In this document: piece after piece, positions 1,736-30,283 of the stretch
Layout: every line of letters starts with the position of its first letter
Numbering within the stretch: the stretch's first letter is position 1
Origin: an uncultured bacterium
GTDB lineage: Bacteria > CAIJMQ01
DNA length: 46,714 nt
Direction of reading: 5' to 3'
Assembly: GCA_964573245.1 (NCBI GenBank)
Contig: CAZNJA010000002.1
Location: 1-46,714, forward strand
Notes under the pieces: model-generated
What the model was told of the DNA's origin: nothing
Databases searched by the model: none
The model's input: only the letters and a program-made list of their open reading frames with translations
Made by a program: the position numbers and the translations under genes

Positions 1736-4155
1736 TTACTCCAAATTCAGATTACTCAGCCCGCGCATAGCACGCACAATCGATTTATTATCCACATTTC
1801 TTTTTTCTAGGACAGCGATTAAAGCCTGCTCTATTTGGGGGTTCGCTTCTGATACTGTAACAGTCCCAGATTTTACCAATTTCTTATAGGAACTGGCTGT
1901 TAGTAATTGTACATAATGAGTGTATGAATAATCAGGCCAGTTATTAACTACTTTTTGACAGTTTTGCAAAGCATTCGCATAATTACCTAATTGATAATCA
2001 CAGTAAGCCACATAAAGAAGCCCCTCTGATACAACTGAAGAGGGGATGTGTTCTGGCGAGTTAACTATCTTTTCATCAACAATGCTTTTTATAATTTGAA
2101 ACATTTCTTTAGCTTTTTCATTATCACTTTGTGAATCTGCTGTTTTATAAAGCTCCAATTGGGCAAATCAGGATGTCCTGCAAAATTTTTAAGGAAATTA
2201 TCAATATCCATTTTTACTTGATAATCATATTCTCCTAATTTTACAAGAGATAACATCATTTCCGACATTGTCAAACCTAGATTTGCCTTTGAGGCATAGG
2301 AGCTTTCGCAATAATTCTGTATTATTTGCTGATAGATATTTTTTGATTCTTCGTATTTGTTTAACCATCCGTATATTTGTGCGATGTTATATAGCGCTTC
2401 CGGTAAATCAGGATTGATAGAAAATCCATCAATAAGTTCATTAATAGCTATCTTGGCTTGGCTATAGTTTTCAGACACCATAAGAGATAAAATATTCATC
2501 CTTAAGGAACTTACTTTTGCTTTGTTAGCGAATGAACTATTAGGATAGTTCTCAAATATTTGCTGATAGACAATTTTTGCTTCGTCAAAGTTATCCGACC
2601 ATTCATATCTTCTTGCCACATTATAAAGTGTTTCCAGAAAATCAGGGTTTTCCGAAAAATTTACTGTCATCTCTCCAATCGCCGTTCTTGCTTCATCCCA
2701 TTGTCCCGTTATAATTAAGTAGCAGATATCATTCCTTGAAACACCAAACAACGCTGGCTGAAACTTATCACTATCAGAATACTTTTGTACTATCTTTTGA
2801 TAAACGCAACTTGCATCTTCATATCTATTTGCCCATTCATACCTTCTTGCAACTTCATAAAGAGTCTCTGTTAAATCAATGTTTCCAGAGAAATTGCTGA
2901 CAAGTTCATCAACAGCTTTTCTGCTTTCGGTGTACTTATGCGACAAGATAAGAGAAAGAACGTTAGTACTTGAAACACCCAATAATGATTTCTGGGCATA
3001 TGAACTATTAGGGTAATACTGTATCACTTGCTGATAAAACTTATTCGCATCTTCATATTTACGCGCCCAGCTGTATCTCTCCGCAATCCAGTAAAGAGTC
3101 GCTGGGAAATCAGGGTGTTCATAGAAAGTTGACGTTAATTCAGCAATAGCTTGTTTCGCTTGTTCATATTCTCCAGATACAATAAGAGAGAGAATATTTG
3201 TTTTATAAAAATCTAATTCTGATTTAATTGCATAGGAGCTTTCGGGGTAATTCTGAATTATCTGTTGAAATATATCTCTGGCTAGCTCATATTCATCTGA
3301 CCATCCATACCTTTGACCAATCCAGTAAAGTGTATCAGGTAAATCGGGATGTTCATGGAAATCAGATGTTATTTTGTTTATCTCTGCCTGAGCTGCTTCT
3401 ATCTGTCCAGATATGATAAAAGAATATATATCCATTCTTGAGATACCTAACTGCGCTCTTTCAGCCTCTTTACTCTGGGGATACTGCTGAACTATTTGCT
3501 GAAAGATGTTCTTTGCTTCATCAAACTTATCCGACCATTCATATCTTCGCCCAATCCAGTAAAGAGTATCAGGCAAGTCAGGGTGTCCATTGAAATCTGA
3601 AGTTAATTCAGTAATAGCTTGTTCGACCTGTTCGTATTCTCTGGAGAGAATAAGAGAGTGAATGCTTGCTCTGAAAAAACCTAACTCTGCATTGCTTACA
3701 TCTATATTCATATTGCCGAAATTATTTTGCATTATTTGCTGGTACGAGTTTTTTGCATCTTCAAACCTATCTAACCATTCATAGCTACGTACGATATTGC
3801 AAAGTGTCTCTATTAATTCGGGGTGTTTTGAGAAATTACTGATTAGTGCATCCCTAACCTCTTCCGAGGCCTGGATATTATTCAATTCAATGTATAATGA
3901 TGCCAAATTTCCATAAGCCCTCAATGCATAATCAGTGCTTGAATATTCTTTAATAATAGTTTGATAGACTTGTTCAGCTTCGACATATTGGTGATTTTCA
4001 CGATAGTCTTTTGCCTTCTGTTCAAGAGCATCAGCTTGCTTGTTTGTTATTATCTGCGCAGAAGTATTTAAAACCCAGAAGATGATACCTAAAAATGCGA
4101 TAACACCAAGAATTTTGATGCCTACTTTACCAACCTGCCAAATTAGCTTAACCAT
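1736..4155 (-). pseudogene. Membrane-anchored TPR-like repeat protein of about 806 aa, split by a 1-nt frameshift near 2158-2167 (true pseudogene or assembly error)
   Basis: ORFs 2089..4155 and 1736..2158 overlap in different frames. The 78-aa repeat (F..HPDLPDTLYWIG.RYEWSD.FDEAKNIFQQI.Q.YP.S...) continues across the junction. Frame A reads ...FAGHPDLPNWSF and frame B reads LELYKTADSQSDNEKAKEMFQIIKS. Frame B has a TGA at 2170..2168, so the frame switch must lie within 2158-2167. Confidence 0.7.
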
Positions 4156-5943: not shown

Positions 5944-6045
5944 ATTTTAATAAACGATTTCAGGGATTAAAAAACAGATTCCAACGATTAATAATCTTTA
6001 TATAATTCACAGCTATACCTAATAATAACTCATATTTATCCAAAC

Positions 6046-6077
6046 CCCGTTACCTGCCTCGCCGGCAAGGCGGGGAA
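6046..6077 (-). terminator. GC-rich hairpin directly downstream of the isomerase gene (possible terminator; related to the GC-clamp hairpin class)
   Basis: Plus strand: CCCCG-TTA-CCTGCC-TCGCC-GGCAAGG-CGGGG. On the transcribed minus strand it is followed by TTTGG, a weak U-tract. Confidence 0.35.
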
Positions 6078-13057: not shown

Positions 13058-14479
13058 ATGATTATAAAAAAAGAAGCTGAACAAATTATAAGTTATTTGG
13101 AAGACACATCCAATTTGAAGTTCGGTAGTGCGGATGTGGTTTATGTTCCTAAAAACGAAGCGGAAGTTTTACAGGCAATAAAAGAAGCAAGGAAAGACAA
13201 TATGCCGCTCACTGCTTCAGGGGCGGGGACAGGCACGACAGGCGGAAGAATTCCTCTAAGCGGAGCAATTGTATCGCTCGAGAAGATGAACAATATTATT
13301 TCAATCGATAAAAGTAAATTTGCAGCGACCTTGCAATCAGGCGTAATAGTGGATGATTTTTTAAAAGAACTGGAAAAAGACAATCTCTTTTATCCCCCGT
13401 TTCCAACCGAGAGAATGGCTTTTATCGGCAGTAATGTCGCTACAAACGCTTCCGGCGAATATAGTTACAGATTCGGCGCAACAAGAAAATATGTCGAAAG
13501 AATAAAAGTCGCTCTGTCAACTGAAAACATACTGGATATAAGAAGGGGAGAATATACCGCAGACGAACAGGGCTTAATTACTTCGCCGTTTTTTAAAGTA
13601 AAAATCCCCGCATACAGAATTCCGGATGTAAAAAATGCCGCCGGCTATTTCTCGCGTCCAGGAATGGATCTAATCGATTTATTCATCGGTTCGGAGGGGA
13701 CTTTGGGAATCATCACAGAAGTTGAAGTTAAACTTATACCCGCGCTTCCAAAGCGTTCGATTATGATTTTATTCCTTCAAAAAAATGAAGACACTTTAGA
13801 CATCATTAAAAAAATCAGGAATAATAAAAAGTTAAATATTTATTCCTTAGAATATTTCGAAAAAAACAGTTTGGGAATTTTAAAAAAAGCCTTCCCGAAT
13901 ATTCCGGACTGCGAGTCGGCTTTGTATATAGAGCAGGAGGCAAAAAATTTGGACGAGTGGCTGGAACTGTTGGAAGAATATTCCCTGGCAGATACATGGG
14001 TCGGCGAAAATGAGCGCGATCACAATAAACTGATAGATTTCAGGCACAAACTCCCCGAACTTATAAACGAGTATTTCAGAGAAATAAAACAAACTAAGGT
14101 TTCGTTGGATATAGCCGTGCCGGAAGATTATTTCCCGACATTTTTTGATTTTTATCAGGAAATGGCGAACAAAACGGCAATTGAATACGTTATCTTCGGG
14201 CATATCGGAGAAAATCATCTACACTTTAATTTTTTTCCGAAAAACGACGAAGAAAAAGAAAGAGCGCAATCGGCTTACATAGAGGCGGTAAAAAAAGCGG
14301 TCGCAAATGGCGGGACTGTCTCTGCAGAACACGGCATAGGCAAATTAAAACACAAATATCTAAAAATGATGTACGGACAAGAAGGCATTATGGAAATGGT
14401 TAGAGTGAAAAAAACAATAGACCCGTTTTATATATTCGGACTGAATAATATATTCCCGAAAGAACTGTTGCAATTGTAA
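13058..14479 (+). CDS. FAD-binding oxidoreductase (GlcD / D-lactate dehydrogenase-like, PCMH-type FAD domain)
   Basis: Has ...PLTASGAGTGTTGG..P, a GSEGTLGIITE FAD-binding segment, and C-terminal SAEHGIGKLK. The first ATG is at 13058; the track uses TTG 13010. Confidence 0.8.
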   Translation: MIIKKEAEQIISYLEDTSNLKFGSADVVYVPKNEAEVLQAIKEARKDNMPLTASGAGTGTTGGRIPLSGAIVSLEKMNNIISIDKSKFAATLQSGVIVDDFLKELEKDNLFYPPFPTERMAFIGSNVATNASGEYSYRFGATRKYVERIKVALSTENILDIRRGEYTADEQGLITSPFFKVKIPAYRIPDVKNAAGYFSRPGMDLIDLFIGSEGTLGIITEVEVKLIPALPKRSIMILFLQKNEDTLDIIKKIRNNKKLNIYSLEYFEKNSLGILKKAFPNIPDCESALYIEQEAKNLDEWLELLEEYSLADTWVGENERDHNKLIDFRHKLPELINEYFREIKQTKVSLDIAVPEDYFPTFFDFYQEMANKTAIEYVIFGHIGENHLHFNFFPKNDEEKERAQSAYIEAVKKAVANGGTVSAEHGIGKLKHKYLKMMYGQEGIMEMVRVKKTIDPFYIFGLNNIFPKELLQL

Positions 14480-17728: not shown

Positions 17729-19270
17729 TTGAAGAACAATATCGTTCCTGTCGTTTTATCGGTGTCCTCTGCCACGCTTTTGACCTTTTCTTTTCATCCT
17801 TTCAACCTTTCATTTTTGGCGTGGATAGCGTTGGTCCCTTTGTTCTGCATTCCCCAAAAAATATCGCCTAAAAAAATATTTATCCTTTATTATTCTGCCG
17901 GGATTATTTTCTGGTTATCTCATATTTGGTGGCTGATTTATGTAACTCCTTTAGGTTATGTTCTTTTGTCTTTTTATCTTGCCCTATTTTTCGGGCTTTT
18001 GGGATTACTTATTAAATTTTCGAGAGAAAAGACAGGTTATCCTCTCTTGTTTCTCGCCCCGCCTATTTGGGTTATGCTCGAGTTTGCAAGAACTTATATG
18101 TTAATAAGCTTTCCCTGGTCTTTGCTGGGTTATTCGCAATGGCACAATACCGCGCTTATACAAATCTCTTCCATAACAGGTGTTTACGGCGTTTCTTTTT
18201 TGATTGTTATGTTCAATGCGGCAGCATCCGATTTGGTTCTGTTAAAAACAAAAAAGCACTTTCGAAATCTTTTATTATCTTTTCTGACAATAATAAATGT
18301 TATCGTATGGGGCTGGCATGCAATTCCTTTAGAGCAAGAAGGGTACGCCTGCCAGAAAATAAAAATTTCTGTGATTCAAGGAAACATTCCGCAGAACATC
18401 AAATGGGACGAAGAATATTCGAAAGAAATTATAAATACTTATGCGGAGCTAAGCATTTACGCAGGGACAGACCATGATGTTTCTTTAATCGTTTGGCCCG
18501 AAACTTCATATCCGGATTATATTAGCGTTGAAAGCGAATTGTTCCAAAAAGTGCGCAATTTGACTTATTATCTAGACACGCATTTGTTGTTTGGCGCGGT
18601 TACAAGCCAAAATAACAGAGATTACAACTCTGCTTTGCTACTATTATCTCCCGAGGCAGAGATAGAGCAAGTTTATAATAAGTTGCGTCTTGTCCAGTTT
18701 GCCGAATATCTTCCCCTTAAAAAACTTTTATTTTTTTTAAGCGACATTTTCCCGCAAATAGGCGATTTTAGCAAAGGCACGGAATACACTATATTCAATA
18801 TCAAAAATCAAATATCAAATATCAAATATAACTTCGCAACATTGATTTGTTTCGAGGATTTGTTTCCGGATTTGGCAAGGGACTTTACCAATAACGGAGC
18901 ACAGTTTTTAGTCAATATCACTAACGACGCGCACTTTAAAGAATCCCCTGCTTTATGGCAACATTTTGCTCATTCAATTTTCAGAGCCGTAGAAAACAGA
19001 AGACCAATAGTAAGAGCGGCAAACAACGGTATAAGCGCGTTTATAAATTCTTACGGAAAACCGATTGAAATATTAACAGACGCCAACGGCAAAGCACGCG
19101 GAGCACGAGGGTACGCAACCGCGCAAATTAGCCCTTCCAACACTAAAACTTTTTATACCCGTTTCGGAGATTTATTCATTTACATCAACTTGCTTTACCT
19201 GTTTGCTTTATCTATTTATCCTATCCGACAACAAAGAAAAAAAGGAAAACAGGGAGTAAAGAAATTATAA
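17729..19270 (+). CDS. lnt: Apolipoprotein N-acyltransferase
   Basis: 513 aa with an N-terminal polytopic domain and a CN-hydrolase domain. Catalytic-triad contexts: IVWPETSYP, YNKLRLVQFAEYLP, TLICFEDLFP. TTG start. Confidence 0.88.
   Translation: MKNNIVPVVLSVSSATLLTFSFHPFNLSFLAWIALVPLFCIPQKISPKKIFILYYSAGIIFWLSHIWWLIYVTPLGYVLLSFYLALFFGLLGLLIKFSREKTGYPLLFLAPPIWVMLEFARTYMLISFPWSLLGYSQWHNTALIQISSITGVYGVSFLIVMFNAAASDLVLLKTKKHFRNLLLSFLTIINVIVWGWHAIPLEQEGYACQKIKISVIQGNIPQNIKWDEEYSKEIINTYAELSIYAGTDHDVSLIVWPETSYPDYISVESELFQKVRNLTYYLDTHLLFGAVTSQNNRDYNSALLLLSPEAEIEQVYNKLRLVQFAEYLPLKKLLFFLSDIFPQIGDFSKGTEYTIFNIKNQISNIKYNFATLICFEDLFPDLARDFTNNGAQFLVNITNDAHFKESPALWQHFAHSIFRAVENRRPIVRAANNGISAFINSYGKPIEILTDANGKARGARGYATAQISPSNTKTFYTRFGDLFIYINLLYLFALSIYPIRQQRKKGKQGVKKL
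18795..18830 (+). repeat. Heptanucleotide tandem array (TCAATA TCAAAAA TCAAATA x3) inside the lnt CDS
   Basis: Direct reading. It encodes FNIKNQISNIKYN just upstream of the catalytic-Cys strand. The 19-mer AATATCAAAAATCAAATAT (18797-18815) is identical to 27836-27854. Confidence 0.85.
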
Positions 19271-19315: not shown

Positions 19316-20536
19316 ATGGATACAAATCTTGTTCTCCTCCTCAGCAGTTTTCTTATAGGGCTATATGTGGCATGGAATATTGGTGCAAACGATGCGGCAA
19401 ATTCCATGGGCTCTTCTGTAGGAGCAAAAGCCATCACCTTCAAACAGGCAATATTTATAGCGTCCATCCTTACTTTCGTTGGAGCTACATTCATAGGTTC
19501 ACATGTTACTGACACGGTTAGAAAAGGAATTGTAGACCCTGCTTTCATAAAAAATCCCGAGGTGGCAATTATTGGATTCATATCTGCACTTCTTGCTTCT
19601 GGATTATGGATTACTTTTGCTACTTGGAAATCTCTGCCCATATCAACCACTCATTCCATTATCGGTTCGCTGATAGGTTTTGGTCTTATTTACGGAGGCA
19701 TAGACATGGTCAACTGGCTAAAGGTGGGGGAGATTACACTTTCATGGATAACTTCTCCTATATTTGCGGGATTGCTTGCTTTTATAATTTTTAAGTTTAT
19801 AGTGAAATTCATTTTAAAATCAAAGGATAGAAGAAAGGCAATCGCAGTAGCTTCTCCACTCTTCATAATTGTTACAGTTTCTATCATATTTTTTTCCCTC
19901 ATGTTTAAAACCAAATTAGGCAGTTCACTACAGGGAGAGAAATTACTAATTGCTATATTCATAGCAATAGCAACTATGATTTTATTATGGTTATGGAATA
20001 GGCAACTTACGGTAAAAGTCGGAAGAGTAGAGCGTATTTTCAGAAGACTTCAAATAATGACAGCTGCTTATATGGCTTTATCAATCGGCTCCAACGATGT
20101 AGCGAATGCTGTCGGTCCTGTGGCCGCCATATATTCCATAATAAAGACCGGAGAAATGGGTTCCCAAGTAGCTGTGCCTATATGGCTTTTGGCTTTCGGG
20201 GGAATAGGTATTGCGCTTGGTATCAGCACCTGGGGTTACAAAGTAATACAAACGATAGGGCACAAAATTACAAAACTAAGCAATACCCGGGGATTTACCC
20301 TGGAATTTTCAGCGGCTACTTCAGTATTAATTGCATCAAAACTTGGTATGCCTGTATCTACCACGCATGCGATAGTCGGCGCGGTTGTTGGTATCGGGCT
20401 TGCAAAAGGGTTAGATGCAATAGATTTGGGAGTAGTAAAGAAAATAATCTATTCTTGGTTTCTTACGGTTCCGGTGACCGCTATATTGACTATTCCCGTA
20501 TATTTATGTTTAATGAAATTATTTAACCCCGTTTAG
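19316..20536 (+). CDS. Inorganic phosphate transporter, PiT family
   Basis: 406 aa, polytopic. Duplicated GANDAANSMG / GSNDVANAVGP signature motifs. Confidence 0.92.
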   Translation: MDTNLVLLLSSFLIGLYVAWNIGANDAANSMGSSVGAKAITFKQAIFIASILTFVGATFIGSHVTDTVRKGIVDPAFIKNPEVAIIGFISALLASGLWITFATWKSLPISTTHSIIGSLIGFGLIYGGIDMVNWLKVGEITLSWITSPIFAGLLAFIIFKFIVKFILKSKDRRKAIAVASPLFIIVTVSIIFFSLMFKTKLGSSLQGEKLLIAIFIAIATMILLWLWNRQLTVKVGRVERIFRRLQIMTAAYMALSIGSNDVANAVGPVAAIYSIIKTGEMGSQVAVPIWLLAFGGIGIALGISTWGYKVIQTIGHKITKLSNTRGFTLEFSAATSVLIASKLGMPVSTTHAIVGAVVGIGLAKGLDAIDLGVVKKIIYSWFLTVPVTAILTIPVYLCLMKLFNPV

Positions 20537-20603
20537 AGATTAAAAAGAAAGGTTATGTTATATATAAATTTACTAAGAATAAATAAGAAGTTTTTATATA
20601 TCA

Positions 20604-20652
20604 ACCCCGTGTTTACGCTCCGACGTAACGTCGGAGCTATCTCTAACGGGGT
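20604..20652. repeat. Nested GC-rich palindromic element (outer ACCCCGT/ACGGGGT, inner GCTCCGACGT-A-ACGTCGGAGC)
   Basis: Direct reading. The inner 21-nt palindrome is shared with the copy inside folC (22737-22757). It ends 4 nt before the AGGAGG RBS of the DUF47 gene. Confidence 0.85.
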
Positions 20653-21344: not shown

Positions 21345-21398
21345 AACTCGCAACTACAGAAAACGGTTATCGGTTTTCGGTTATCGGTGTTCGTTAAA
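21345..21398. repeat. Heptanucleotide direct array (AACTCGC AACTACA ... CGGTTAT CGGTTTT CGGTTAT CGGTGTT CGTTAAA)
   Basis: Direct reading. It fills the convergent spacer between the DUF47 gene and the orphan gene and overlaps the orphan gene's stop codon (21394-21396). Confidence 0.8.
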
Positions 21399-22038
21399 AT
21401 TTTGCTTGCTGTATAGAATTTTTTAATTCTTCATCCATCTTAATTAATGCATTTGGATTCTCATACAAGTAATTTTTAAACCTATCACTGTAAAAAACCA
21501 CAGCTTGCAGTTTCTCCCACTTAGGGGGCTTCTCACCTTGAAATCTACTATGAAACATTTCATATGTTGCATCATCAAAATTAGAATGGTGAGTTCCCCA
21601 TGCATCCGTAAGAAGAAAAACAATATTCAAACAATCTTTATTTAATTTTAGTTGTTTGTAAGCTTCCCCGATTTTATCTATGATTGTTTTCAAAGTTGAA
21701 AATTCTGAGGGAATTTCATTAATTAAAGCTTCTTCTTCTGGTAAATGATTAATATCCACTTTCCTAGTGAAAGGTGGGTTATTCAGTATCTTTTGTCTCT
21801 GGGTGAAATAGATTGTCTTTACTTCAGCACTATATGTCTTGTTTTTGTATTCAAAAACTATGTCATGAGAACACTCCATACATTTTATTTCTAAATTTTC
21901 CAAGTGGCTTAACATCTTGGCTATAACAAGCTGATTAATATAATCTTGTTTTTGTTTTTCGTTATTTGCAATTTTCTTTTTCACCTTATCAAAACCAGAG
22001 GTGTTACTTAAACAATTAAAAGCATCCAAATTTTCCAT
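21394..22038 (-). CDS. Hypothetical protein; possible PD-(D/E)xK nuclease-fold orphan
   Basis: 214 aa with no family I can name. The segment ...SHDIVFEYKNKTYSAEVKTI... fits D-x(n)-E-x-K spacing on predicted beta strands. Two 60-nt samples I counted gave 22% and 32% GC, against 37% in a folC sample. No SD sequence upstream. Confidence 0.45.
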   Translation of the reverse strand: MENLDAFNCLSNTSGFDKVKKKIANNEKQKQDYINQLVIAKMLSHLENLEIKCMECSHDIVFEYKNKTYSAEVKTIYFTQRQKILNNPPFTRKVDINHLPEEEALINEIPSEFSTLKTIIDKIGEAYKQLKLNKDCLNIVFLLTDAWGTHHSNFDDATYEMFHSRFQGEKPPKWEKLQAVVFYSDRFKNYLYENPNALIKMDEELKNSIQQAKF

Positions 22039-22059: not shown

Positions 22060-23469
22060 TTATTCCTGTTTCTTCTTCAATAGTATACTTCTAGCCTCTC
22101 CTACCAAATACAAAGAGCCGCAGACAAGGATAATATCATTACTCCCTTTATTTTTCTTAAGTTTTTTTATGGTTGATGAAAGATTCTTGCTTGTTGTTAT
22201 GTTTGCATTGTAAGTTTCCCCATCTTTCTTCAGTTCCTCCAAAGAAACAGCTCTTTCGGTATTGGGTTTAGCTAAAATTATCTCATTTGCCAGGGGGAAA
22301 ATTTCTCGCATGATTTCCTCTCTGTCTTTATCTTTAAGTATTCCGAAAAGAATAGTAATTTTTTTATCTTTTTTTAATTTCAAGATTTCTTCTCTCAACA
22401 TCCCTGCCGCCTGCGGATTATGCGCTCCGTCGAGAATAAATATGGGGGGTTTTTTTCCAACACCAAAATTTTCCTGCCCGCCAAGATTTGGCAGGCGGGG
22501 GTGTGGGGACAGGCCTATGACCTCCAGTCTTCCTGACCAGGTAGTTTTCTGCAAGCCTTTATATATATGTTCTTTTTTAATTTTGAATTTTTCGGATAAT
22601 ATTTCGGATGCGGCAACAGCCAAACTTGCGTTCGTATGCTGCCATTTGCCTTTTAAATTTATTACAACATTCGGATAAGAACCTTTTATACCCTTAATAT
22701 TTAATGTTTGACCCAAGAAATACTCCCCGCCTGCTTGCTCCGACGTTACGTCGGAGCGGGCAGGTTTGTATTTTTTCACGAAAAAATCTTTACCGTATAT
22801 AAAAATAGGCGATTTTTTTTCTTTTGCAAGTTCGTTCAGAGTACCAAGCGCTTCTCCTTCAGCGCCCGTAACCAGAGGAGTGTTTTTCCTTATGATCCCG
22901 CCCTTTTCTTTTGCGATGGACGAAACGGTTTTTCCCAGATAATTCGTATGCTCAAGCCCAATACTCGTTATTACCGAAAGGATTGGTTCGGATACATTCG
23001 TGGCATCAAGCCGTCCGCCAAGACCCACTTCATAAACAGCGGCGTTTATTTTTTCCTTCCTGAAATATAAAAATGAAAGCGCTGTCAACACTTCGAAAAA
23101 AGTCGGTCGCGAATAAGGCGGGCAATCGAAGATTTTTTTGATTTCTTTTTTCAATTCGTCCGTAAGGCAAGCAAAAGCCATCCGCGGTATATCCGTTTTT
23201 TTATCACCTCGAAGTATACTGATTCTTTCTCTTATTGTTATAAGATGCGGAGAAGTGTATAGGCCGATTTTCAATCCTGTTTCTCGCAAGATATGAGCAA
23301 TAAAAGAAGCAACAGAACCCTTGCCATTTGTGCCGGCTACCAGAATGACAGGATACGAAAGATGCGGACTATCAAAATGTTCAAGGAGTTTTCTGATATT
23401 GGAAAGACCTAATTTAATTCCCTGCCCTTCTAAACCATAAAGCCAGTTGAGGGATTGTTTGTAAGTCAT
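22060..23469 (-). CDS. folC: Bifunctional folylpolyglutamate synthase / dihydrofolate synthase
   Basis: 469 aa. Mur-ligase P-loop VAGTNGKGSV, TSPHL, typical N-terminus LNWLY......GIKLGL.N...LL. It contains two GC-rich hairpin segments in-frame. Confidence 0.9.
   Translation of the reverse strand: MTYKQSLNWLYGLEGQGIKLGLSNIRKLLEHFDSPHLSYPVILVAGTNGKGSVASFIAHILRETGLKIGLYTSPHLITIRERISILRGDKKTDIPRMAFACLTDELKKEIKKIFDCPPYSRPTFFEVLTALSFLYFRKEKINAAVYEVGLGGRLDATNVSEPILSVITSIGLEHTNYLGKTVSSIAKEKGGIIRKNTPLVTGAEGEALGTLNELAKEKKSPIFIYGKDFFVKKYKPARSDVTSEQAGGEYFLGQTLNIKGIKGSYPNVVINLKGKWQHTNASLAVAASEILSEKFKIKKEHIYKGLQKTTWSGRLEVIGLSPHPRLPNLGGQENFGVGKKPPIFILDGAHNPQAAGMLREEILKLKKDKKITILFGILKDKDREEIMREIFPLANEIILAKPNTERAVSLEELKKDGETYNANITTSKNLSSTIKKLKKNKGSNDIILVCGSLYLVGEARSILLKKKQE
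22472..22518. repeat. GC-clamp hairpin segment inside folC (CCTGCCCGCC-AAGATTT-GGCAGGCGGGGG plus GTGTGGGGACAGG)
   Basis: Direct reading. CCCGCC/GGCGGG or CCTGCC/GGCAGG can pair. The flanks match those of the 22725-22765 element in the opposite orientation. It encodes ...LSPHPRLPNLGGQEN... Confidence 0.6.
22725..22765. repeat. 41-nt GC-rich palindromic element inside folC, in-frame
   Basis: CCCCGCCTGCTTGCTCCGACGTTACGTCGGAGCGGGCAGGT, 29/41 G+C. It shares 33/41 identity with 29135-29175. It encodes KPARSDVTSEQAGGE. Confidence 0.85.
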
Positions 23470-27812: not shown

Positions 27813-27833
27813 CTTCACCCCTTATTTTAAAAT

Positions 27834-28007
27834 TAAATATCAAAAATCAAATATTAAAATTTAAATAGGAAAACCCGCGCTGACAAAGTTCTGTTATTAG
27901 CTTTTTCTGGTATCGAGCATTTAGTATCAAGAATCCAGTTTCTCATTTTGAACTTTAATTTGTCATTTTGCATTTTTACTTTTTAATTTTTACTTTTGCC
28001 TTTAGAT
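27834..28007. repeat. Composite heptamer-periodic spacer: (YAAAWAT)x5, a 41-nt non-periodic core, then 14 consecutive heptamers (GTATCGA GCATTTA GTATCAA GAATCCA GTTTCTC ATTTTGA ... TTTTTAC TTTTGCC TTTAGAT)
   Basis: Direct reading. It occupies nearly all of the 196-202 bp rpiB-ilvE spacer. It shares the words GTATCGAG, TAGTATCAAG and GAATCCAG with the array at 23482-23562. Confidence 0.85.
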
Positions 28008-28487: not shown

Positions 28488-29117
28488 CTATACATTAATT
28501 ATTCTTTCTATATCCTCTTTTTTTATTTTACCTTCTCTGATTAATTTTGGCGAATTTCCCGTGCAGTCAATTACTGTGGAAGGCATCCCCCAAATTGTTT
28601 GCCCCCCGTCTAAAATCAGGTCGATCTTACCATCAAAATACCCTTTGACTTCTTCTGTGTTTAAAGCATCTTTTTCACCCGAAGTATTTGCGCTTGTCGA
28701 AACCAACGGGCTGTATTCTTTTAATAAAGCAAGCGGCACAAAATGGTCCGGGATTCTAAATCCCAACGCTTCGGTTTGAAAGGGTACATCCAGTCCGATT
28801 TTTTTCTTAAGCACCACCGTTAAAGGTCCCGGACAAAATGTTCTCATTAACTTATATGCAAAATCCGGCAACTTTTCAACATATAAACTCACGCTTTCGA
28901 TGTCCGGAACAAAAACAGACAAAGGTTTGGAAAAATTCCTGCTCTTGATTTTATATATTTTTCTCACCGCCTTCTTAGAAAACAGGTCTCCTGCCAGGCC
29001 GTAGACCGTTTCCGTAGGCAAAGCTACTACTCCGCCGTTTTTCAGGACCGATACGGCTTTTGAAACTACATCCTTCTCCAACTTTTTAGAATCTATTTTT
29101 ATATAATCCATAACCAT
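28488..29117 (-). CDS. tsaC: L-threonylcarbamoyladenylate synthase (YrdC/TsaC domain)
   Basis: 209 aa. G.VVALPTETVYGLA.D......V..I...K.R...KPL and GPLT.V are YrdC-family motifs. Confidence 0.85.
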   Translation of the reverse strand: MVMDYIKIDSKKLEKDVVSKAVSVLKNGGVVALPTETVYGLAGDLFSKKAVRKIYKIKSRNFSKPLSVFVPDIESVSLYVEKLPDFAYKLMRTFCPGPLTVVLKKKIGLDVPFQTEALGFRIPDHFVPLALLKEYSPLVSTSANTSGEKDALNTEEVKGYFDGKIDLILDGGQTIWGMPSTVIDCTGNSPKLIREGKIKKEDIERIINV

Positions 29118-29134
29118 ATTATCTTTTTAAAAAT

Positions 29135-29173
29135 CCCCGCCTGCTTGTCCCAACGTAACGTCGGGATGGGCAG
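29135..29173. repeat. Intergenic copy of the GC-rich palindromic element (prfB-tsaC spacer)
   Basis: CCCCGCCTGCTTGTCCCAACGTAACGTCGGGATGGGCAG. It has the same 13-nt left flank as the folC copy. On the minus strand it is followed by GGGGATTTTTAAAAAG. Confidence 0.85.
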
Positions 29174-29184
29174 ATGTGTAATCA

Positions 29185-30283
29185 TTATTTAATTTTCTTC
29201 CCTCTTAGATAATCAAAAATAAAGGGGTCTATATTCCCATCTAACACATCGTCGGCATTCGTCTGCTCGGTGCCGGTGCGATGGTCTTTAACCAGCGTAT
29301 AAGGATAAAGGACATAACTTCGTATTTGATTTCCCCACTGGATATCTTTTTTTTCACCGACAAGTTTCTTCTGTTTCTCTTTTTCGAGCGCCTGAAAATG
29401 CTGATAAAGCCGCGATTTCAGCATTTCCATAGCAATATGCTTATTCTGGTGCTGGGATTTTTCTGATTGAGCACTAGCGACTATGCTTGTTGGGGTATGT
29501 GTTATCCTGACCGCGGAATCGGTTTTGTTCACATGCTGACCCCCAGGGCCAGAAGAGCGAAAAGTATCGATTTTCAAGTCAGCGTCATTGATTTCTACTT
29601 CCAACCCCTCATCGATTTTTGGAATAACTTCAACCGCCGCAAAAGAAGTATGCCTTCTCTTGGCGGCGTCAAACGGAGAAATTCTAACCAACCTGTGTAT
29701 CCCTTTTTCGCTTTTCAAATAACCGTAAGAGAAATCCTTTGGAAATCGCAAACTTGCATATTTAATCCCCGCTTCATCTCCCAGGCTGACATCCACAACT
29801 TCCGCTGACATATCGTTTCGCTCCGCCCATCTTATATACATCCGAAGCAGCATCTGTGCCCAGTCGCAGGATTCCGTGCCTCCCGCTCCGGGTTTTATCA
29901 TAAGGAAACAGCCATTTTTATCGTAAGTGTCAGCCAATAAAACTTCTAACTGCCATCTTTCAATTTCCTTTTCTATTTTTGCAAGTTCGGCTGAAACTTC
30001 CTGCGATGTTTCTTTATCTTCTTCTTCTTGCGCTAATTGATTTAAAACTTCCACATCTTCTATTTTTTTGTGCAATTTATTCCATTTAATTTGTTCTCCT
30101 TTAAGCGAATCAAGTTTTTTCATTACCTTTTTCGCGCTCTCAACATCCTGCCAAAGGCCATCTTTTTCAGACTCCTTGCTTAACCGGTCAATTTCCTTTC
30201 CCTTGTTTCCTAAGTCAAAGAAGCCCCCGTATGTCTCTTAACTTATCTTTAAAACTTGCCAATTTAGCTCTTATATCATCCAT
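29185..30283 (-). CDS. prfB: Peptide chain release factor 2, expressed through a programmed +1 frameshift: complement(join(29185..30216,30218..30283))
   Basis: Frame 0 reads ATG(30283) MDDIRAKLASFKDKLRDIRGLL then TGA(30217..30215). The +1 frame continues DLGNKGKEIDRLSKESEKDGLWQDVESAKKVMKKLDSL... into ORF 29185..30123. The SPF (RISPFDA) and GGQ (GPGGQHVNKTDSAV) motifs are present. The joined product is 365 aa. Confidence 0.93.
30214..30228 (-). promoter_or_regulatory. RF2 autoregulatory +1 frameshift site
   Basis: The minus strand reads GGGGG CTT CTT TGA C: an SD-like G-run, a 3-nt spacer, the CUU slippery codon, then the UGA-C stop context. This is the same architecture as E. coli prfB (AGGGGG UAU CUU UGA C). 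Confidence 0.9.

Follow-up and report, generated by a model that had tools for sequence, protein, structure and literature searches.

Correia elements of Neisseria are an example of bacterial transposable elements of the miniature inverted-repeat type (MITEs), and the palindromic element RPE-1 is reportedly about 100–150 nt long and restricted to Rickettsia. In Neisseria and Pasteurellaceae, pairs of DNA-uptake sequences double as transcription terminators. Repetitive extragenic palindromes (REPs) are 20–40-nt palindromes that form sub-families with alternative complementary stem residues, contain G·T pairs and have intragenic, in-frame copies, and REP families are partly common to distant species (Di Nocera et al. 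2013, PMC3733652). Here we analyzed a hairpin, designated c3, that lies between prfB and tsaC in a 46.7-kb stretch of DNA (46,714 nt, hereafter the window) from a Ratteibacteria-like bacterium. In an earlier note on this DNA, c3 was compared with a second copy at folC, and paired changes in the two stems were taken as a sign that the hairpin is maintained, possibly as a terminator or attenuator. Our analysis indicates that c3 is probably a recently inserted and already decaying copy of a small, dispersed, non-autonomous REP/MITE-like palindromic repeat, and not a conserved terminator or attenuator. The family to which c3 belongs is newly described here.

The prfB–tsaC junction in the window and in its relatives

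On the plus strand, c3 reads TCCCCG-CCTGCTT-GTCCCAACG-TAA-CGTCGGGAT-GGGCAGA, and the scaffold strand written in this way is antisense to prfB and tsaC (the coordinates of all features are collected in Table 1). For comparison, seven related contigs were obtained via their folC homologues (57–77% identity): L100, L103, L105, L106, L107, L108, and L109. The gene order prfB–tsaC–rpiB–ilvE (aminotransferase)–clpB–hypothetical gene–folC is kept in all seven, and the c3 element is absent from the prfB–tsaC junction of every one of these syntenic Ratteibacteria relatives; the hairpin is not conserved at this site. The two genes abut or overlap in L100, L105, L106, and L108. In L109, a 33-nt stretch at the junction is the tsaC N-terminus, the ATG of which overlaps the prfB stop codon (TAATG), and the junctions of L103 and L107 contain unrelated hairpin inserts. 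Comparison with the empty L109 junction places the boundaries of the insertion after TGATTACACA and before the native TTTTTAAAAAGAT, the equivalent of the orthologous spacer TTTCTGAAAAAGAT of element-free L109; other type-B copies, i.e. those that share the scaffold of c3, show different 3′ flanks. Judged from these comparisons, c3 is a lineage-specific insertion in the lineage of this Ratteibacteria-like genome. The other two copies in the window are likewise missing at the orthologous sites of relatives, and upstream of lon a type-B copy is present in L072, a syntenic relative (77–86% amino acid identity), and missing from the window.

The insertion left its mark on the downstream gene. The ATG that opens a 28-codon open reading frame (ORF) across c3 is the called tsaC start in L109, and this ORF is what remains of the ancestral coupled tsaC start. 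Since the 41-nt insert is not a multiple of three, tsaC must use a downstream ATG. The c3 insertion disrupted the ancestral overlap of the tsaC ATG with the prfB stop, and the two genes are now separated by a spacer of 67 nt. Contigs from four independent runs contain c3 with zero differences, and no allele lacking c3 was found among the DNA contigs.

The prfB/tsaC and pit/phoU junctions and one position in folC have been struck by different elements in different lineages, so that the two junctions are either recurrent insertion hot spots or the sole tolerated sites. Different and unrelated hairpin inserts, or inserts with terminal inverted repeats (TIRs), were seen at these junctions at L103:4270–4370, L107:3660–3840 and 14250–14470, and L109:13037–13101. 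In L106 (827–3189 and 4506–5091), a HinfI-type restriction enzyme and an N6/N4 methyltransferase are inserted between icd and prfB; icd and tsaC of this contig are each called as two fragments and are possibly pseudogenes or carry sequencing frameshifts.

The dispersed family and its copies within proteins

The core of the element is a perfect 10+1+10 palindrome of 21 nt. The exact 21-mer (GCTCCGACGTWACGTCGGAGC) was found at 69 metagenome loci; these range in GC content from 27 to 52% and show about 60 different flanks, and with 20 specified bases the 69 loci are not explained by chance. The 15 central bases of the core (CCGACGTWACGTCGG) are practically invariant or simply decaying. The low-GC loci are from Elusimicrobiota (their MurC is 73% identical to that of an Elusimicrobiota metagenome-assembled genome [MAG]) and the window is Ratteibacteria-like, so the identical palindrome is present in at least two phyla. 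As far as the compared copies indicate, the core is nested in at least two unrelated scaffolds, termed type A and type B. Type-A elements share their terminal repeats and have quite different interiors. The element around the core measures 39–42 nt; there are 3 copies in 46.7 kb, and about six further type-B copies were found in one source-metagenome run. Both scaffolds also occur without the core. In core-less copies of the type-B scaffold (CCCGCCTGCTT...GGGCAGG), the apex is AAA (L065:7015), TTCTGCAAGAA (L109), CAAATCTTG (window positions 22473–22499, in folC), or the loop-inverted CAAGATTTG (L099). Whether the central base of the core is A or T does not depend on how the scaffold is oriented.

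About 85–90% of the copies are located outside long ORFs, and their intergenic contexts are tandem in 27 cases, convergent in 12, and divergent in 6. The intergenic regions of these genomes contain clusters of such GC-rich hairpins. T-rich tracts lie beside 19 of 60 copies, compared with a background of 20%. In 16 of 60 distinct copies, the helix is extended by at least four Watson–Crick pairs of unrelated sequence (1.4 expected), and in other copies an internal loop is followed by an outer stem CCCC.../...GGGG. An unpaired GTAGG precedes the core directly on its 5′ side in 6 of 59 flank types, all of them low-GC Elusimicrobiota loci; neither a GTAG nor a CGTC tag is present in any of the three window copies or in any type-A or type-B copy. 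Half-sites of the core occurred 148 times within palindromes and twice alone, compared with five solo occurrences expected. An uptake sequence was therefore rejected, as half-sites of the core, unlike uptake sequences, do not stand alone. An assembly or adaptor artefact was also rejected, because some copies are decayed, some lie in frame in genes, and some come from independent assemblies and runs.

Several copies are translated. The folC copy (c2), which had been taken for an extragenic sister of c3, is in fact located inside folC and is read as part of FolC. Its 13 residues are absent from all 17 aligned FolC homologues, and none of the seven orthologous genes contains its 39 nt. The same gene contains a second, core-less type-B scaffold in frame. 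In the AlphaFold (AF2) model of FolC, which has a mean predicted local distance difference test (pLDDT) score of 85.8, the sole long segments below 50 are residues 238–250 and 321–337, and these predicted low-confidence segments coincide with the two repeat-encoded inserts. The residues of the second insert are SPHPRLPNLGGQENFGVGKK, and homologues P0002 and P0005 carry related inserts nearby; other FolC homologues have further short inserts elsewhere (TRLRSSSFG..., NPAPRKVPFLRTRGGV, LLAYGKQAG). Outside FolC, a homologue of zinc-dependent alcohol dehydrogenase (L093), a protein unrelated to FolC, carries the identical 39 nt and 13 residues (PARSDVTSEQAGG) in frame. An M20 peptidase (L092) has two copies, one of them read in another frame (LPAPTLRRSKQA), and a further copy lies inside a long ORF of L046. 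A search of 5.8 billion proteins with a concatenated six-frame translation of the element returned 223 word-sharing candidates and none at E ≤ 10, segments of 13–14 residues being too short for HMMER statistics.

The third window copy (c1) is embedded in a type-A element between pit and phoU. The left TIR of this element supplies the TAG stop codon of the pit/PHO4 gene, the last residues of which are altered relative to those of relatives, and the pit–phoU spacer is 135 nt in the window compared with 20–32 nt in five relatives. Elements with the same TIRs (CCCCGTTTAGAGA/TCTCTAACGGGG) and other interiors were seen in L038, L093, L099, L105, and L109. The slot between the phoU-like gene and folC (window positions 21394–22038, minus strand) is variable: it is occupied by a 214-residue ORF without Pfam match in the window, by a 293-residue ORF with no assigned function in L103, by a HATPase_c_3 protein in L105, and by a methyltransferase in L109, and contains nothing in L100.

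Searches outside the analyzed contigs returned little. Clustering of the ORFs around the 69 loci gave no recurrent neighbor gene beyond housekeeping families (e.g. Mur ligase, penicillin-binding protein, and M24 peptidase), and a motif scan found no small HUH ORF adjoining the copies. No parent insertion sequence (IS) with matching ends was found in the sequences examined. A scan of a genome collection for CCCGCCTGCTTG-N21-GGGCAG gave 30 matches, all of them single chance matches in high-GC genomes with a non-palindromic inner sequence. Among viral contigs, which served as a negative control, the 15-nt apex matched 44 times, at chance level and never with an extended stem. The 52-nt element gave two marginal partial matches in plasmids and none in phages. 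A full-text literature search for the motif string found no paper, and an exact look-up of the tsaC protein gave no record. No RNA run that includes the locus was found.

Table 1. Positions of c3, its neighbors, and the related copies in the window
Feature	Positions	Strand	Description
c3 (copy under study)	29134–29174	+	41-nt element, type-B scaffold plus core
c3 core stem-loop	29147–29167	strand-neutral	9 pairs and 3-nt loop; GTCCC/GGGAC-type allele with one wobble and one mismatch
tsaC (Sua5/YciO/YrdC family), downstream gene	28488–29117	−	Pfam PF01300, E = 8e-54; ORF list
prfB (release factor 2, RF2), upstream gene	29185–30283	−	Pfam PCRF and RF-1
Native A/T-rich spacer	29124–29133	−	UUUUUAAAAA on the mRNA strand; directly 3′ of c3, outside the repeat
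28-codon ORF	29099–29185	−	Opens at the ATG overlapping the prfB stop (TAATG), crosses c3 and stops, out of frame, within the tsaC start region
c2	22726–22764	+	39 nt, CCCGCCTGCTT[GCTCCGACGTTACGTCGGAGC]GGGCAGG; in frame in folC, residues 236–248 = PARSDVTSEQAGG
Core-less type-B scaffold (B0 hairpin CCCGCCTGCCAAATCTTGGCGGGCAGG)	22450–22509	−	In frame in folC, residues 321–340
c1 in type-A scaffold	20527–20651	+	~125 nt; 12–13-nt TIRs (CCCCGTTTAGAGA ... TCTCTAACGGGG); core at 20617–20637, near the right end

The window has a GC content of 38.7% and carries housekeeping genes, the closest protein relatives of which are labelled Candidatus Ratteibacteria / Omnitrophica, and its sequence is contained in salt-marsh metagenome runs. 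At 30214–30220 on the minus strand, prfB has the canonical CTT TGA C site for programmed +1 frameshifting, preceded by a GGGGG run, and because of this site the ORF list gives just the 312-codon downstream part of the gene. Elsewhere in the window, a GC-rich hairpin of the CCCCG...CGGGG type (CCCCGTTACCTGCCTCGCCGGCAAGGCGGGG) lies at 6045–6075 between Mg-chelatase-like and fucose-isomerase-like genes. A 688-residue TPR protein (2089–4155, minus strand) is made from seven 234-nt tandem DNA repeats that are 62–72% identical, and a 14-nt AT-rich tandem unit (ATATCAAAAATCAA-like) occurs at 18779–18842, in the lnt ORF region, and at 27818–27867, after the aminotransferase gene.

Stem alleles and covariation

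The comparison that drew attention to c3 is that between its core and the core of the folC copy at 22737–22757 (GCTCCGACG-TTA-CGTCGGAGC). The two copies are 79% identical across 52 nt (22719–22770, repeat family D7) and have the flanks CCCCGCCTGCTT / GGGCAG in common, and the stem letters, coordinates, and homology given in the earlier note are correct. On the plus strand, pair 2 has changed from C-G to T-A and pair 3 from T-A to C-G, as the note described. The note also placed a G·T wobble at pair 1 and a mismatch at one further position; this is true of the plus strand, where pair 1 is G·T and pair 6 is A·C, and the two are swapped on the transcribed minus strand, where the basal pair 1 is an A·C mismatch and pair 6 is a G·U wobble. 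All six stem differences between the two copies are transitions. If six changes fall on 18 positions, two or more compensated pairs arise with a probability of 0.17 for transitions only, 0.04 for a transition fraction of 0.67, and 0.02 for a fraction of 0.33. The pairwise comparison is statistically weak because two transitions, one on either side of a pair, necessarily restore pairing, and that two compensated pairs go beyond chance is not supported by this comparison alone.

The earlier note proposed that covariation be tested over a collection of copies, and this test was run by shuffling. The copies were gathered independently of the exact 21-mer, by a mismatch scan, an apex anchor, and a covariance model (R1), and comprised 17 distinct stems. 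Pairing cells amounted to 90.8%, compared with 83.8% in shuffles. The number of cells changed on both sides was 14, compared with 5.9 ± 2.4 in shuffled sets (none of 500 reached 14) and 0–2 in slid controls, and the covariation score was 0.284, compared with 0.167 (0 of 500 shuffles), a result which shows that complementary alleles exist and is not a count of independent events. The excess of both-sided changes over all 500 shuffles is confined to basal pairs 1–3 (GC/CG, CG/UA, CG/UA). In the six apical pairs there is identity, wobbles, or breaks only, and never a compensated change. The pattern points to a hairpin with a sequence-constrained apex and a structure-constrained base.

The basal pairs define a small set of stem alleles. 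Four fully complementary alternative stems were found: GCTCC/GGAGC, GTCCC/GGGAC, GCCCC/GGGGC, and CCCCC/GGGGG. The first is present in the type-A scaffold in c1 and in the type-B scaffold in c2, L072, L092:1566, and L093, and the second is present in type A in L103 and L092 and in type B in c3. All four combinations of these two stems with the two scaffolds exist, which suggests either exchange between copies, by conversion or templated correction, or repeated parallel change, and both would be properties of the family. The stem GTCCCGACG...CGTCRGGAC occurs at L103:3057–3077 and, with transitions, at L092:1886–1906, in both cases in a type-A scaffold and in other genomes; L103 is a Ratteibacteria relative, and its copy sits between icd and prfB. 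On this comparison of copies, the double change in c3 is a family allele and not a private compensation. The claim that the paired changes show the hairpin to be maintained is thus sound for the family, which keeps its stem complementary, but the double change did not originate at this locus as a compensation.

Measured against the GTCCC/GGGAC allele itself, c3 differs by a basal C>T, a G>A at pair 6, and a G>A in the outer stem, none of which is compensated, and it is the most diverged type-B copy. Covariance model R1 scores its core at 27.9 bits on the plus strand (E = 6e-4) and at 23.6 bits on the minus strand. Its fold energy is −18.7 kcal/mol on the minus strand (z = −2.4) and −20.4 kcal/mol on the plus strand; its sisters fold more strongly (−29.5 kcal/mol for c2 and about −29 kcal/mol for the other window copy). 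Decay of the core at L037:2830, L042:588, L103:3057, L092:1886, L105:16889, and window position 29147 consists mostly of CpG transitions (CG>CA/TG), which could reflect cytosine methylation of the motif.

Origin of c3, alternatives, and comparison with known systems

If c3 is a decaying copy of a dispersed repeat, the following course of events can be proposed. The element would have entered the prfB–tsaC junction in the lineage of this genome, its mobility being suggested by presence and absence alone. The second stem allele would have reached c3 by descent from, or conversion by, another copy, with intrastrand templated correction as an alternative origin; four independent point mutations selected at the c3 locus are less likely. 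Spread or copying would require a single-strand hairpin, hence the arms would stay complementary, and a trans-acting protein may recognise the sequence of the invariant apex, whereas the base would matter to it only as a helix. Given the GTAG-tagged relatives, the obvious candidate for this protein would be a Y1-HUH enzyme of the type found in REP-associated tyrosine transposases (RAYTs) and IS200. The arms could be kept alike by the hairpin requirement, by conversion, or by intrastrand templated repair. After insertion, individual copies would drift, as c3 appears to have done, and any transcriptional effect of c3 would be a by-product and not the output of a maintained terminator or attenuator.

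Several observations weigh against the view of c3 as a copy of a mobile repeat. No transposase or RAYT-like gene was recognised in the window, nor in roughly 650 kb of loci that carry the element, and no target-site duplication is visible at the folC, prfB–tsaC, or pit–phoU sites. The shuffle control leaves the kinship among copies in, so the covariation statistics may be inflated. The pair-6 variant of c3 (G·U on the mRNA strand) recurs at L092:1896 and L105:16889, and some of the supposed decay of c3 may therefore be inherited. The copy counts are those of the 46.7-kb window and the metagenome loci. In addition, all five type-B copies have a single orientation relative to the gene strand, which could reflect an RNA-level role or a strand-specific insertion mechanism.

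The first of these two options leads to an alternative in which the origin of the copies is mobile and they are retained for an RNA-level hairpin role, as REP-like 3′-end protectors or processing sites that tune the expression of neighboring genes. REPs have been reported to have such roles (PMC3733652), and the common orientation of the five type-B copies, the basal-pair covariation across the family, and the G·T pairs kept in the scaffold stem (CCTGCTTGC/GCGGGCAGG) would fit it, as would the preponderance of convergent over divergent intergenic contexts and the copies with extended helices, some of which resemble bidirectional terminators (aaaaaca[core]tgttttt). However, on the mRNA-sense strand of all five type-B copies, two conserved T·G pairs turn into C·A mismatches, a 3′-end role is not apparent for copies that lie within ORFs or upstream of start codons, and c3 itself is the copy of its type that has diverged furthest. 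We consider this alternative unlikely.

Also unlikely is a version in which the 21-nt palindrome, with its apex CCGACGTWACGTCGG, is itself the mobile or copied unit, a protein-recognised hairpin that spreads between phyla (Ratteibacteria-like, Elusimicrobiota, and others) and lodges preferentially in the apices of pre-existing hairpins such as repeats, terminators, and REP scaffolds, with its arms kept complementary through conversion or templated repair instead of through selection on individual copies. If this were true, the unit would rank among the smallest mobile units known.

We regard a Rho-independent terminator or attenuator separating prfB from tsaC as improbable. Like an intrinsic terminator, c3 forms a GC-rich hairpin, it stands before UUUUU on the minus strand (the GGGGAUUUUUAAAAAG after the hairpin is as the earlier note had it), and A- and T-tracts flank some members of the family; as a result of the insertion, moreover, the prfB stop and the tsaC start no longer overlap. 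However, in the minimum-energy fold the U-run starts 6–7 nt past the stem, whereas intrinsic terminators require a spacing of 0–2 nt, and part of it pairs with sequence upstream. An alternative register (CUGCC/GGCGG) would leave 2 nt between stem and U-run, but it has just five basal pairs under a 1 × 5 internal loop. A terminator consensus scan called no terminator for c3 on the minus strand, and called the folC copy on the antisense strand. The GGGGA after the c3 stem is the element's own, as every type-B copy ends ...GCAGGSGGGGA(G) on that strand, and the U-run belongs to the native flank, which is older than the insertion. The hairpin is missing from the seven orthologous junctions, four of which have abutting or overlapping genes that indicate an operon, and Rfam gave nothing at gathering score and weak chance-level matches only at E ≤ 10. 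Neither a leader peptide nor an alternative antiterminator pairing was seen. Finally, identical elements lie in the coding sequences of full-length in-frame genes (folC, the dehydrogenase, and the peptidase), where efficient termination would be lethal or costly.

In the least probable alternative, a conserved protein would bind the palindrome as a dimer on duplex DNA, at an operator, a partition or uptake signal, or a restriction-modification-related site, and the dispersal of the palindrome would reflect this function. The perfect palindrome with a 15-nt center invariant across two phyla would suit such a site, but we give it very little credence. Unrelated genes contain copies in frame, other copies are found at 3′ ends or within repeats, and they do not mark the promoters of a common regulon; half-sites are not found singly; no neighboring gene recurs; the flanks often lengthen the helix with unrelated bases, a property of consequence to a single-strand hairpin but not to a duplex site; and the basal pairs covary.

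The reading of c3 as a copy of a REP/MITE-like repeat has consequences for the analysis of similar genomes. The compensation argument for c3 is a repeat-family signature, and claims of covariation that are based on a pair of paralogous copies commonly fall into this trap. In the annotation of these candidate-phylum MAGs, repeat-encoded loops of 13–25 residues should be expected in essential enzymes, with two in FolC, and repeats can rewrite stop codons (as in pit) or start regions (as in tsaC). Hairpin elements that differ between lineages have inserted independently at gene-junction hot spots. The presence of the 21-nt palindrome in two phyla and several scaffolds offers a concrete way to look for the protein that recognises it and to test REP-like spread without an evident RAYT.

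Among known systems, the family behaves like the Rickettsia palindromic elements (RPEs; Ogata et al. 2000, cited in PMC3733652) in that a palindromic repeat is located in frame in housekeeping genes and is translated as an extra surface loop that does not destroy the protein. The resemblance is one of behavior only: unlike an RPE, the window element is 39–42 nt long, unrelated in sequence, mostly intergenic, and resident in a free-living, Ratteibacteria-like sediment host. With MITEs (e.g. PMC10969869), it shares its non-autonomous character and its presence/absence polymorphism between relatives; the type-A elements have TIRs of 12–13 nt and lengths of 70–125 nt, and one copy supplies a stop codon. 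Unlike in MITEs, target-site duplications and a parent IS were not found, and type-B elements are shorter than a usual MITE and form one continuous hairpin. Compared with REPs, the window copies lack the defining GTAG/CGTC tag, no RAYT gene was seen in the sequences examined, the apex and not the whole stem is conserved, the core is nested in two unrelated scaffolds, and the identical 21-mer occurs in two phyla. The behavior of the family matches that of REPs and REPINs. Like them, the element is a short, GC-rich, imperfect palindrome that is dispersed, mostly intergenic, and clustered with other hairpins; it forms sub-families with alternative complementary stems (at pairs 1–3) and G·T pairs and has occasional in-frame copies; and the Elusimicrobiota cores are preceded by an unpaired GTAG(G), as in GTAG-tagged REPs.

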